DNA of 47,057 bases from Coleofasciculus sp. B1-GNL1-01 (GCA_040220235.1 JAVJTO010000099.1); one strand, 5' to 3'; counted from the first letter of the stretch, positions 24,998 to 30,000 are shown. Program-made: numbers and translations. Notes: generated by a model from the letters alone, not told the origin.

Positions 24998-26599
24998 CTA
25001 ATTATCAGTTTCGATGATCTCTTGCGGTAAGACAGATTGAGGTTCAGAAATGTGTTGATTAAGATATTTATCAAGGGTTCGGGTAACATTCCGACCAAAC
25101 ACAATTTCCGCTGTTGGTAAGATATCTTGTAGACTATCAGCAAGATGTTTTCGTTCAACTTCCGAGAGTTTCTTAAATCCATCTCTAATTCGCTTGAGTG
25201 TAATGATCGGGTAGTTGTTGCCAACGATATAACCATTTGCATGATAACTTCTATCTCCATCCAAAAGATGAAGCCCAAAGATAAAATCACCTTCTTGGAT
25301 AACAGCTTTTGTAAAATCCTTGATTCGGACTTCTTGATATTCTACTAGATTGAATGATTTAAGCCGAAAAATAGTATCACCTGACTGTAGTTTACCGACT
25401 TTAAGGCTTGGGTTATTTTCTTTCGCATCGTCTGGAAAAATTGCTTTCCAGCCTTCTTGACCGGATATATCTCTTGCCCAAAACAAATGGTGTCCTGTAA
25501 AAAAAGGCAATCCTTTTTGTAAACCATCATCAATGCCGTAAATTACTCCGTTATGGGGCATTTTAATTATGATCTTTTCATCGGAATAAAAAGCAATTTG
25601 CCCATCTTTGGTTAATATATTATCACCTTCAGCAAGGTGTTCTATAGTCTTCTCCTCACCATTTGCTAACTTGATTTTAGTGCCCTTTACAAAGCAACAC
25701 CCATGTGTGATGGAACGTCCTATGACTGCTGCTGGGCTGTGGTCTTCTATCTCCGTATTTTTATAATTTGTTGATGTTCTAAAACCAAGTTGATTCGGTC
25801 GTCCAGCAAGCCAATCTGCAACAGCTTTTCCATAGGCATAGTCGTATATATATCCTGATGCCATTGCTGCTCCCGGACCACCAAAAGCGGGTATAAATGT
25901 TTTACCCGTTTGAGTTTTTTTAGAAATAGCGTTATTGACATTACCCATAAATTGCTTGGGAAGATGGGTGAAATTAGGATAGGGAATAAAATGAAATTTT
26001 TCCCATTGTGCAATAATGCCTTTGTCAGGATAAGCTACTTTCCATCTATCGAGTGTAGACTGAACATAGCTGGGATCTAGTTGATGAAGTTTGAAAAAGA
26101 TGAGATTAAGATTTTCTAACCAATTGGGTTCTTCAAAAATTATGACTATTTTGGCATTTATGAACGGAGCAGTAACAACAGCATCGTGAAGTCTTTTTGC
26201 CCATTTGCTACCCCCATCTTCCTGATACATCCTGAAAGTAGTTTCATCCTTCCTACAATAATCAAGAAAATAGTGAGTATATAAATGACTACCTTCAGCT
26301 ATACAATTAGCATTGGCTTGAGTCAAACTTCTCTTCCAAAAATCATCTGCTCTCCCTCGATTGACACAATTGGCAAAATTGTATCTACTACTATAGGAAA
26401 TTGCTGAACAGATAAATGCACAAGCAACATCGTTCACAAAAGCCACATTTTTCGGAGAAATAGCTGACGGTGGATTCGGAAAAAACACATTGCGAACGCC
26501 ATTCCCTGCATTTTGGAGCATGTTCGTAAATCCTGTTGTTACGTTACTCTTGACTTCGTGATCGGCAAGTTCAAATAAGTTCTCTACGCTGAGTGCCAT
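24998..26599 (-). CDS. Hint-domain (intein-like autoprocessing) protein with uncharacterised N-terminal helical domain
   Basis: CFVKGTKIKLANGEEKTIEHL (block A), FTGHHLF (TxxH block B), SYHANGYIVGN (blocks F/G). AGGAG RBS upstream. Confidence 0.85.
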   Translation of the reverse strand: MALSVENLFELADHEVKSNVTTGFTNMLQNAGNGVRNVFFPNPPSAISPKNVAFVNDVACAFICSAISYSSRYNFANCVNRGRADDFWKRSLTQANANCIAEGSHLYTHYFLDYCRKDETTFRMYQEDGGSKWAKRLHDAVVTAPFINAKIVIIFEEPNWLENLNLIFFKLHQLDPSYVQSTLDRWKVAYPDKGIIAQWEKFHFIPYPNFTHLPKQFMGNVNNAISKKTQTGKTFIPAFGGPGAAMASGYIYDYAYGKAVADWLAGRPNQLGFRTSTNYKNTEIEDHSPAAVIGRSITHGCCFVKGTKIKLANGEEKTIEHLAEGDNILTKDGQIAFYSDEKIIIKMPHNGVIYGIDDGLQKGLPFFTGHHLFWARDISGQEGWKAIFPDDAKENNPSLKVGKLQSGDTIFRLKSFNLVEYQEVRIKDFTKAVIQEGDFIFGLHLLDGDRSYHANGYIVGNNYPIITLKRIRDGFKKLSEVERKHLADSLQDILPTAEIVFGRNVTRTLDKYLNQHISEPQSVLPQEIIETDN

Positions 26600-26628
26600 A
26601 AAAATTCTCCTGATGAATACAAGACCAA

Positions 26629-29600: not shown

Positions 29601-30000
29601 CAACCATAGTACCCTTAAAGCCAATCGAACCTTCACCAGAGTAAGTCATAGTTCCGTTCAAGGTTTGTCCACCATCGTCAGACTTAACGTTGATAGCGAC
29701 GACATTTTGATTAGAGCGACTGCCAATCACCCAGTTACCCCCAGGATTCCAAGGAGCAGAATTTCCTCCCCATTGATTTTCGACAGTGTAATTATTTCCA
29801 CTGGTTCTGGTAGCCCGAAAGCCAATCGAACCTTCACCAGAGTAAGTCATGGTTCCGTTCAAGGTTTGTCCACCATCGTCAGACTTAACGTTGATAGCGA
29901 CGACATTTTGATTAGAGCGACTGCCAATCACCCAGTTGCCCCCAGGATTCCAAGGAGCGGAATTTCCTCCCCATTGATTTTCGACTTTGTATAATGCCAT
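26677..30000 (-). CDS. OAA-family (Oscillatoria agardhii agglutinin-like) lectin fused to a large domain with C-terminal hydrophobic helices; putative lectin-targeted membrane-active protein
   Basis: Residues 1-~133 are two repeats of VENQWGGNSAPWNPGGNWVIGSRSNQNVVAINVKSDDGGQTLNGTMTYSGEGSIGF, matching the OAAH repeat. Multiple Gly/Ala/Val-rich hydrophobic segments near the C-terminus. Confidence 0.85.
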   Translation of the reverse strand: MALYKVENQWGGNSAPWNPGGNWVIGSRSNQNVVAINVKSDDGGQTLNGTMTYSGEGSIGFRATRTSGNNYTVENQWGGNSAPWNPGGNWVIGSRSNQNVVAINVKSDDGGQTLNGTMTYSGEGSIGFKGTMVEESADTKVNSYIRFPETHPSTWKDPGKVHFDKINHSFDTHVWHHTKVNWCNRTTPIKRIHINEGELYIDGHHIVNPHWGRDFVSFAQEVGGKFRSGHLNFTPDGHAFTGHIFLGTNGNDAQQHQVAGVVPPTVYTTKVAKSGETKPPKKDVPDWFPQKARSFIDDDGAYKGSNVSSFSASDWEDGVTITIGYKLDANAHGTKLPTPYWEIAGDKRLGKRIIPSVSPKGNLVLTETIPVMEANSIVKQFGDQFPVELTVEVTLFAGHFVGYIRKWDKTKFEVSKEIFAFVGQAIPNQTKISLPHTRNTSNFHVLAGLQSATPSSLSMAELVGLVAEHNALQETSWAMIQDNMKWALDQKGGDQKQWLTNFFSEKSSNFSKSRQDLIKKDLNFYTDKMAVSILAHSFQNISGTGELKPEYKLTSQQDTNILFWMRAGLGTSKGYSRQNQGIFLQTYAASVPRIQDYIADQNSPGGTNWAQELYNQLTNPATLNLTAQKIIFGSGNNSAGLTEVNRHSTLLQVLQPTGDLAKKYHNIIVQRILQDQSLTTCIDLSDPKKIAPWLEDVLRGFAEAYESGRLQIKDPANQAAIDAAKVALDADLAKAKGFVELAAASADIIAAANAGAKAADYWTNLFKSSQGLAKVYPGVALLFYFGAFVGGIYGTSQAFAQFEQEPWNEKAELVTSWVVIGLKILENAPTMMRVVWSGGRTVASAIGRGGRNAITAIRNWSNTAQQGGDLGLQEADYIAIEDLSMASSNSTILDEGIELLVRRDPTFMERGTQALSEIADAALAAIRNAGSRLSNAIGEAIEAVGNAWSRFVNFAETSILPLLSKALTGIFAVASVAMAVFSTVEFIQDIEDGKGTEETILDGVMAASAWVGAAAAVYMGLATLEVVAVVSWVPVVGAVAAVIGIVAALWAAFSPKPTPPTPQESFMKNYGKKAVAADGFIKAAPTGWTKDQPVPKYNVYNPQPAMT
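29617..29985. repeat. 168-bp intragenic direct repeat (29617-29784 / 29818-29985) encoding the two OAA repeats
   Basis: 201-bp period; 3 mismatches seen, all synonymous. Confidence 0.92.

Follow-up and report, generated by a model that had tools for sequence, protein, structure and literature searches.

A lectin-headed protein with hydrophobic helices and a paralogous Hint partner: a candidate two-component system in Coleofasciculus

We analysed two neighbouring genes, here called A and B, in a 47,057-nucleotide stretch of DNA (the window) from Coleofasciculus sp. B1-GNL1-01 (GCA_040220235.1 JAVJTO010000099.1). Gene A (26677–30000, minus strand) encodes 1107 amino acids (aa) and gene B (24998–26599, minus strand) encodes 533 aa; the spacer between them (26600–26676) is 77 bp long. 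An earlier note, made from the sequence alone, had described a co-oriented pair with this spacing, and open reading frame (ORF) calling reproduced both coordinates and strands. ORFs of this length with homologues across several phyla are far beyond chance. Protein A consists of an OAA-family lectin followed by a core of two beta-rich domains, a helical domain (H), hydrophobic helices and a short tail, whereas in B a helical domain (H') precedes a Hint domain, after which comes a short helical tail. We concluded that A and B very probably constitute one two-component system. We read the pair tentatively, at slightly below an even chance, as a released, glycan-targeted, two-part membrane-inserting toxin that is matured by Hint cleavage.

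Linkage of A and B was evident among relatives of A. A B-like module was found at the N-terminus, directly ahead of the A-type barrel, in 28 of the 150 listed relatives of A. In the fusion P0020 (1485 aa), B occupies residues 8–478 and the A core starts at residue 512, and in the fused proteins the B-type tail runs directly into the A-type beta-barrel. Another fusion, P0024 (1755 aa), carries two Hint domains in tandem (B-like module at 7–510, second Hint at 543–738) before the A core. On a FastTree phylogeny of 99 core sequences the fused state required nine changes, at least four of which were forced by well-supported branches, although some of the rows scored as unfused may be fragments.

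An 11-row alignment of A alone was also scanned against species-representative genomes. The scan returned eight loci, from Ktedonobacteraceae (two), Spirochaetota, Solirubrobacteraceae, Proteobacteria (two), the cyanobacterium Pegethrix and Caulobacteraceae, and a B-like gene was adjacent or fused to A in five of them. Two of these five contained fused B–A genes, two had B immediately upstream of A, and one had a gene for H' without Hint following two copies of A. The remaining three loci had no B; a search of the whole genomes with a B profile located B at a contig end in one of them, where A lay at a contig start, and found no B in the other two. Pegethrix (L008) was one such genome, having no B-like gene by the B profile. 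Its locus (L008:1-8604) holds three consecutive A paralogues, the last two of which are separated by a gene for a 689-aa protein that matches no known family. A second cyanobacterium (G217) had a distant A-like gene of 1323 aa and, downstream in the same orientation, a gene for a 780-aa Hint protein (Vint PF14623, E 9.6e-7), so that the gene order was A and then the Hint protein, as in the window. A search for co-occurrence, fused versions included, was among the checks that the earlier note had proposed, and both adjacent and fused forms were recovered. In the Coleofasciculus pair, the OAA lectin sits where the fused relatives carry the partner module, and the partner is a separate downstream gene.

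The two proteins also share a domain. A pairwise BLASTP comparison of A and B gave no match (best E 0.54), though an hhalign comparison of a profile of stand-alone B proteins with a profile of unfused A proteins aligned B 1–177 with A 455–657 at 97.8% probability (E 1.2e-12). Because the profiles align, we regard H' as a paralogue of the H domain of A, in agreement with the description of B as a paralogous partner. A complex prediction for A 150–770 and B 1–300 gave no answer (score 0.00, mark 0.32).

B was found to have a Hint fold. Its Pfam scores fell below the gathering cutoffs (PF05203, 24.3 vs 32.1 bits; PF13403, 23.8 vs 28.4 bits), and these matches covered only the first 34 profile positions. 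We took a census of Hint residues in 26 aligned B-like modules. At the N-terminal junction, Cys1 (Cys302 in B) and the block-B histidine (His371) were present in all 26 modules, and Ser or Thr at position 368 in 24. Thr307 was present in 24 of 26, Asp408 in 26 of 26, and a glycine preceded the junction (position −1) in 18 of 26. All of the N-junction catalytic residues were present in the B of the window. The C-terminus of the domain was less regular: Asn462 occurred in 19 of 26, position −2 was Met, Leu, Ala or Val with His never in the majority, and position +1 was Tyr in 25 of 26. Intein-type splicing was considered and rejected, since a terminal His-Asn followed by Cys, Ser or Thr at +1 was not found. 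Hedgehog proteins form a thioester and cleave at the N-terminal junction; they do not splice, nor do they cleave at the C-terminus as inteins do. Judged by these residues, the Hint domain of B looks hedgehog-type, with predicted cleavage at the N-terminal junction. The tail that follows Hint in B-like modules has a conserved motif (YP.IT.KR..G...L...E). These results agree with the earlier description of B, in which a helical domain and a Hint domain are succeeded by a short tail of helices.

Homologues of stand-alone B were scarce. A word-indexed protein search with B returned one homologue (P0003), and none of the 37 pattern matches obtained when genome contigs were scanned with an alignment of B was a relative. 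A metagenome scan with B yielded one 1.2-kb locus (L003, 258–959), which holds the closest homologue of B (84% identity). The L003 protein is extended at its N-terminus by 84 aa that match no known family, with no A-type end upstream, and its frame breaks near residue 224 on a low-coverage contig.

For the core of A, an AlphaFold model was built on a 50-row alignment (mean pLDDT, the predicted local confidence, 68.8). The model and the hydropathy profile bore out the beta-rich region, helical domain and Gly/Ala/Val-rich hydrophobic helices that the earlier note had described; the stretch quoted there lies at aa 1003–1053. No fold could be assigned to the second beta domain. Domain H was the most conserved part of the A family and contains the motifs NMKWA and DGGxxWA. 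Kyte-Doolittle means over 19 residues reached 1.56 (aa 771–797), 2.01 (aa 954–990) and 2.5 (aa 1003–1058), and the last of these marks a terminal Gly/Ala/Val-rich hairpin (aa 1003–1056). Equivalent strongly hydrophobic C-terminal segments occurred in all 50 members of the A family examined, and B contained no such segment in 19-residue Kyte-Doolittle windows. In the closest relatives (alignment A3), the tail after the hairpin carries the motif PxPPPxSPxExFM ... GW ... NxYxP. A Foldseek search with the whole model of A returned only matches of TM ≤0.15, which were disregarded, and a profile of alignment A2 compared with PDB sequences gave no known pore-former (best E 0.83).

A word-indexed protein search with A aa 140–1107 returned only A itself among 7997 candidates; an exhaustive HMMER search (query A aa 141–1107) was therefore needed to reveal the family. 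It identified 157 cluster representatives at E ≤1e-3, of which 94 fell at E ≤1e-10 and 54 at E ≤1e-30. Most of the relatives are 800–900 aa long, and the aligned span runs from about aa 155 of A to the C-terminus. The non-lectin part of A had no Pfam, NCBIfam or PADLOC match. Among 30 relatives of A, 27 had no Pfam family, all 50 members of A2 showed no recurrent Pfam family even at E ≤0.1, a further 22 relatives showed none either, and NCBIfam gave nothing better than E 1e-5 for nine relatives. The source names that could be retrieved for relatives of A were all "hypothetical protein", and our literature searches found no paper describing the family. The pair had been put forward as undescribed, and the absence of any match in Pfam, NCBIfam, PADLOC and PDB sequences is consistent with this. 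The nearest protein-language-model neighbours of A were VasX_N and type III secretion system (T3SS) translocator clusters (scores 0.83–0.87, below the 0.9 bar); the same kind of search with B 1–295 had no usable match. One family member, P0044 (962 aa), has an insert at aa 442–531 that matches Baseplate_J (PF04865, E 1e-7, above cutoff).

The lectin head of A was assigned with confidence. PF17882 matched aa 1–132 in two stretches (E 1e-42), and the NCBIfam model LectinOAAFamily (NF050073) scored 208 bits against a curated cutoff of 150, as expected from the OAA-family lectin proposed at aa 1 to about 133. PDB matches included MBHA (4fbr, E 2e-115) and OAA (3s5v, E 9e-63 to 4e-65); the head aligned over its full length with 3s5v, 2mwh and 4fbr, and the overall sequence was conserved. 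By these matches, aa 1–132 constitute a complete OAA lectin of two repeats, each about 67 residues long. At the DNA level the repeats share 96% identity over 182 nt at a spacing of 201 nt (window 29609–29991). Repeats of great age would be expected to differ much more, and a recent duplication or gene conversion within the lectin is suggested.

The earlier note had taken characterised OAAH lectins to be small stand-alone proteins. That premise did not hold for the family at large: 23 other proteins of 608–1938 aa (P0157–P0179) also carry OAA, with partners that include phospholipase C, subtilase, SUMF1, PhoD, FN3 and WD40/P-loop domains. Many of these large proteins have signal peptides, and in the secreted ones OAA is mostly C-terminal; one, which lacks a signal peptide, joins an N-terminal OAA to P-loop/WD40 domains. 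OAAH members are described as generally short in a survey of cyanobacterial lectins (PMC10655256). The diversity of OAA fusions was not mentioned in the passages of that survey that were consulted. The pairing of OAA with the A core was absent from the 150 listed core relatives and from the 23 other large OAA proteins.

Other lectins were found on members of the family. The H'-only protein at L006 starts with a bulb-type mannose-binding lectin whose nearest match was pyocin L1 (9pxi_F, E 1.6e-8), and in P0075, a member of the A family, a jacalin lectin (E 3.3e-18) forms the C-terminus, beyond the hairpin and tail. The family has recruited three unrelated lectin folds (OAA, bulb-type and jacalin), at either end of either component. 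Glycan targeting, which the earlier note had proposed from A alone, recurs in this sense as a theme of the family.

The A core was rare and widely scattered. It was not found in 40 relatives of the host (eight species from its genus, 16 from its family and 16 from its order), and in an even sample of the phylum it matched 2 of 401 genomes, namely this one and G217. The family spans at least seven bacterial phyla; further sources included a Legionella sp. metagenome-assembled genome and an uncultured Paludibaculum. The genome of the window held no paralogues, tandem A paralogues were present at L005, L006 and L008, and a scan of viral contigs gave 60 pattern matches and no relatives. G+C content over the A–B pair was 0.41–0.42, vs 0.44–0.50 for most of the window. 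We consider the sparse multi-phylum spread, the tandem paralogues and the lower G+C content clear signs of a conflict system.

How such a toxin would work can be outlined as follows. B would cut itself at the Gly/Cys–Cys302 junction through a hedgehog-type N–S acyl shift, freeing H' (~300 aa). The protein would leave the cell by a non-Sec route, and the lectin would attach it to a target cell by way of mannose-rich glycans. The next step would be insertion of A's hydrophobic helices in the target membrane, with H' contacting A as a paralogous second subunit, and the toxic outcome would be membrane damage. In a variant that we consider improbable, the Hint domain of B links itself to the end of H' as a thioester and then passes H' covalently to a lysine of the A core or to a membrane lipid, which would give a covalently armed or lipid-anchored toxin. 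By analogy with known Hint chemistry, such coupling is possible but is not required by the data.

Several observations weigh against a released toxin. No signal peptide was visible by eye in A, in B or in the relatives' N-termini that were read, as the earlier note had reported for the pair itself, and no secretion-system genes were present at the 10 loci examined. A conserved candidate immunity gene was not found, because the unknown neighbouring ORFs in eight loci were mutually dissimilar. The helices of A are as hydrophobic as ordinary transmembrane anchors. Colicin, ClyA, Bcl-2 and other pore-formers were not among the structural matches, in which H was not compared on its own. PADLOC gave no match for A, B, the neighbouring DUF3160 protein or the neighbouring NB-ARC protein, and the silence of Pfam and NCBIfam on the core counts in the same direction. 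The Hint domain has also decayed in places: the stand-alone B at L004 lacks Cys1 (it has Gly-Phe), and the L006 partner has no Hint. Lastly, the lectin is no proof of an extracellular target, because OAA also heads the P-loop/WD40 protein that has no signal peptide.

The proposal of a bipartite toxin was thus sustained in part. The evidence agreed with it as regards a single unit, the Hint domain, the paralogous domain and the lectin theme, but not as regards a pore-former fold, secretion genes or immunity genes. Hint autoprocessing, likewise, is credible for the B of the window with its intact N-junction residues, but it is not universal among relatives. The decay suggests that the essential outcome is two separate polypeptides and that Hint can decay or vanish where the genes are already split.

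Features of the A–B locus and of the divergent neighbouring gene
Feature	Residues (aa)	Window position	Strand	Evidence or remark
Two-repeat OAA-family lectin (A)	1–133	29602..30000	minus	Pfam, NCBIfam and PDB matches
Eight-stranded beta-barrel, first core domain (A)	155–264	29209..29538	minus	confident model
Second beta-rich core domain (A)	265–430	28711..29208	minus	strands mostly pLDDT 80–93; conserved in closest relatives
Helical domain H (A)	455–760	27721..28638	minus	pLDDT mostly >90 (aa ~460–760); family alignments A2 and A3
Hydrophobic helix module (A)	771–1056	26833..27690	minus	Kyte-Doolittle; long helices (777–1053), low pLDDT
Pro-rich C-terminal tail (A)	1057–1107	26680..26832	minus	pLDDT ~95 (aa 1060–1100)
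Spacer hairpin		26629..26662	minus	13-pair stem, weak T tract; putative element
Helical domain H' and linker (B)	1–301	25697..26599	minus	ends H-G-C before Cys302
Hint domain (B)	302–464	25208..25696	minus	Cys302, Thr307, Thr368-x-x-His371, Asp408, Asn462
Helical tail after Hint (B)	465–533	25001..25207	minus	four short helices, aa 468–514
HTH (Cro/C1) and NB-ARC STAND NTPase	529 in total	30209..31798	plus, divergent from A	PF00931 E 2.3e-11; HTH_26 E 1.3e-8

Within the 77-bp spacer, an AGGAG motif follows the putative hairpin and precedes the ATG of B. No RNA dataset was listed for the sequence. The rest of the 47 kb encodes pentapeptide-repeat proteins, DUF3177, a DUF3685 response regulator and queA, with a CemA-type neighbourhood elsewhere. 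Because ordinary cyanobacterial genes surround the pair, the contig is not foreign to the genome. On the side of B, the region 22096–24591 contains a DUF3160 ORF of 659 aa with a TTG start, whose orthologues in two same-genus genomes have frames of about 800–812 aa, and a 77-aa ORF (24358–24591, minus strand) lies upstream of it in a different frame. A frameshift or a mis-called start in the DUF3160 ORF is possible. In those two genomes, none of the window's other neighbours lay with the DUF3160 orthologue in the 18 kb examined, and an insertion boundary could not be defined from DUF3160 synteny. Farther away, at 9773–13327, is a gene for a 1184-aa protein that resembles nucleotide-binding leucine-rich-repeat receptors and combines a NACHT N-terminal helical domain (NNH3, E 2e-67) with pentapeptide repeats.

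The gene divergent from A encodes a helix-turn-helix (HTH) and NB-ARC STAND NTPase, which is possibly a regulator of the pair; its membership in the system is uncertain. A 1072-aa Ser/Thr kinase with a four-Cys prefix domain follows it (both within 30209–35226). At L004, a protein of the same architecture (HTH_3 and NB-ARC, 523 aa) adjoins the pair, which is also flanked by a gene for NB-ARC, TPR and LuxR domains, and at L010 a kinase lies near the fused gene. Similarity between the HTH and NB-ARC proteins of the window and of L004 was confined to the P-loop region (E 2e-5), and such a neighbour was present at 2 of the 10 loci examined (the window and L004) and at none of the others. These NTPase and kinase neighbours could reflect regulation or coincidence.

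The neighbours bear on the main alternative, a serious one that we nonetheless think less likely: A may be an integral protein of the producer's own inner or thylakoid membrane, with a cytoplasmic sensor part, that disrupts this membrane on a signal, as in abortive infection or programmed death. H' would be its regulator or co-subunit, and the STAND NTPase and kinase would be its controllers. The lack of a signal peptide (by eye) and of secretion genes, the transmembrane-grade hydrophobic segments in 50 of 50 members, the HTH and NB-ARC genes by the pair in the window and at L004, and the Ser/Thr kinases nearby in the window and at L010 all agree with a role of this kind. The confidently modelled tail of A (pLDDT ~95) appears as if packed on the soluble part, for which the N- and C-terminal ends would have to share one side of the membrane. 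The sparse distribution suits defence genes as well as toxins, and the Cap15-like barrel lends weak support. The strongest counter-argument is that three mannose-type lectins would be odd on the cytoplasmic side. Moreover, the neighbourhood contains neither a nucleotide cyclase nor any known defence gene, PADLOC was silent for A, B and the NB-ARC protein, the STAND neighbours occur at 2 of 10 loci and share P-loop similarity only, and no relatives were found in viral contigs.

The lectins also fit a second alternative, which we regard as rather improbable, that the pair is not toxic at all and that A holds its lectin within the envelope or at its surface, to serve adhesion in the sheath, in the mat or between cells, while Hint cuts or attaches H' during assembly. 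Fusions to OAA, bulb-type and jacalin lectins fit this function, as do the signal peptides and adhesion-type domains of many large OAA proteins; the listed DNA datasets with the sequence were all labelled microbial mat metagenomes, and no immunity gene was seen. Against it, neither A nor B has an export signal, adhesin repeats and cell-wall anchors were not detected, and the rarity (none of eight other same-genus species) and tandem paralogues suit conflict genes better. That A and B are unrelated neighbours, a membrane-anchored lectin beside a degenerate intein-like gene, is very improbable: the empty A–B BLASTP and the sub-cutoff Pfam Hint scores of B would allow it, but it is contradicted by the 28 fusions among 150 relatives, by the five of eight loci from other phyla with adjacent or fused genes, by the profile homology of the B N-domain with H, and by the invariant Hint catalytic residues.

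Whichever function applies, the pair belongs to an unnamed family that is modelled in neither Pfam nor NCBIfam and in which no structure has been solved. Its design is unusual in uniting a hedgehog-type self-cutting domain, a paralogous helical pair, a hydrophobic module and alternative lectin heads. If the toxin reading is true, this would be a new family among membrane-damaging toxins and a compact bacterial model for Hint-driven maturation. The OAA lectin has been studied mainly as an antiviral reagent, and the same reading would suggest a natural role for it. Were the covalent hand-over of H' to prove true, there would be a bacterial hedgehog-like conjugation step within a new class of pore-formers with interchangeable lectins and a helical fold for which no relative was detected. 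If A instead acts on the producer's membrane, it would represent a new type of membrane executioner in multicellular bacteria.

Comparison with known systems places these features in context. Among lectins, A aa 1–132 make up the same two-repeat barrel as the OAAH members OAA, MBHA, BOA and PFA, but characterised OAAH proteins have 132–294 aa and consist of lectin repeats only, whereas here the lectin heads a protein of 1107 aa. The bulb-type lectin at L006, nearest to pyocin L1, invites comparison with the lectin-like bacteriocins (pyocin L1, putidacin L1/LlpA), in which a lectin is the targeting part of a killing protein, as predicted for our family; those bacteriocins are lectin domains alone, with no hydrophobic module or Hint, and the lectin of the window is OAA rather than bulb type.

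Among self-processing proteins, the Hedgehog/Hog family fits B in having a cargo, a Gly-Cys junction (Gly at −1 in 18 of 26 modules) and the Hint layout. It differs in that the 70-aa tail of B is charged and helical with no hydrophobic segment, so that sterol recognition is not indicated, in that H' is unrelated to Hedgehog ligands, and in that the B system is bacterial. Bacterial intein-like (BIL) domains, including BIL2 of the Tetrahymena BUBL1 locus, differ too: sequence identity is only 19%, B has no ubiquitin-like cargo, and B-like modules lack the penultimate His and vary at the terminal Asn. BIL2 is reported to be able to transfer an upstream domain to lysines (PMC8616854).

HINT peptidases are described as a common processing domain of polymorphic toxins by Zhang et al. 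(2012, PMC3482391). The fused relatives of A likewise have Hint upstream of a putative membrane-active C-terminal module, and they are sparse, multi-phylum and rich in paralogues. In the window, however, the genes are separate and in the order A then B, rather than with Hint upstream of the module; a Pfam scan of both proteins and of relatives revealed no trafficking domain, and RHS repeats, filamentous repeats and an immunity gene are all lacking. Here variation resides in the N- or C-terminal lectin, while the C-terminal module is conserved instead of polymorphic.

Among membrane-active proteins, the nearest language-model clusters of A were VasX effectors of type VI secretion systems (T6SS) and the T3SS translocators HrpK1/HrpF, all below the 0.9 bar; no Pfam match to VasX_N or HrpK1 was found in 50 members (E ≤0.1), and no T6SS or T3SS genes are nearby. 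Cap15, a beta-barrel and transmembrane effector of the cyclic-oligonucleotide-based antiphage system CBASS, is distinguished by a nucleotide-binding barrel in an operon with its cognate cyclase, a setting not seen here. The ClyA-type toxins (YaxAB/XaxAB, Hbl/Nhe) offer an analogy of design only, in that two paralogous helical components are encoded side by side and just one of them carries the long hydrophobic insertion element. No sequence or fold similarity to them was detected, in comparisons that did not include H on its own, and the bipartite and tripartite ClyA-type toxins carry Sec signals or leave the cell by known routes; none of them is known to contain a Hint. The A–B system brings together known principles, namely Hint maturation, lectin targeting, an insertion hairpin and a design of two paralogous parts, but both the family and the combination are new.

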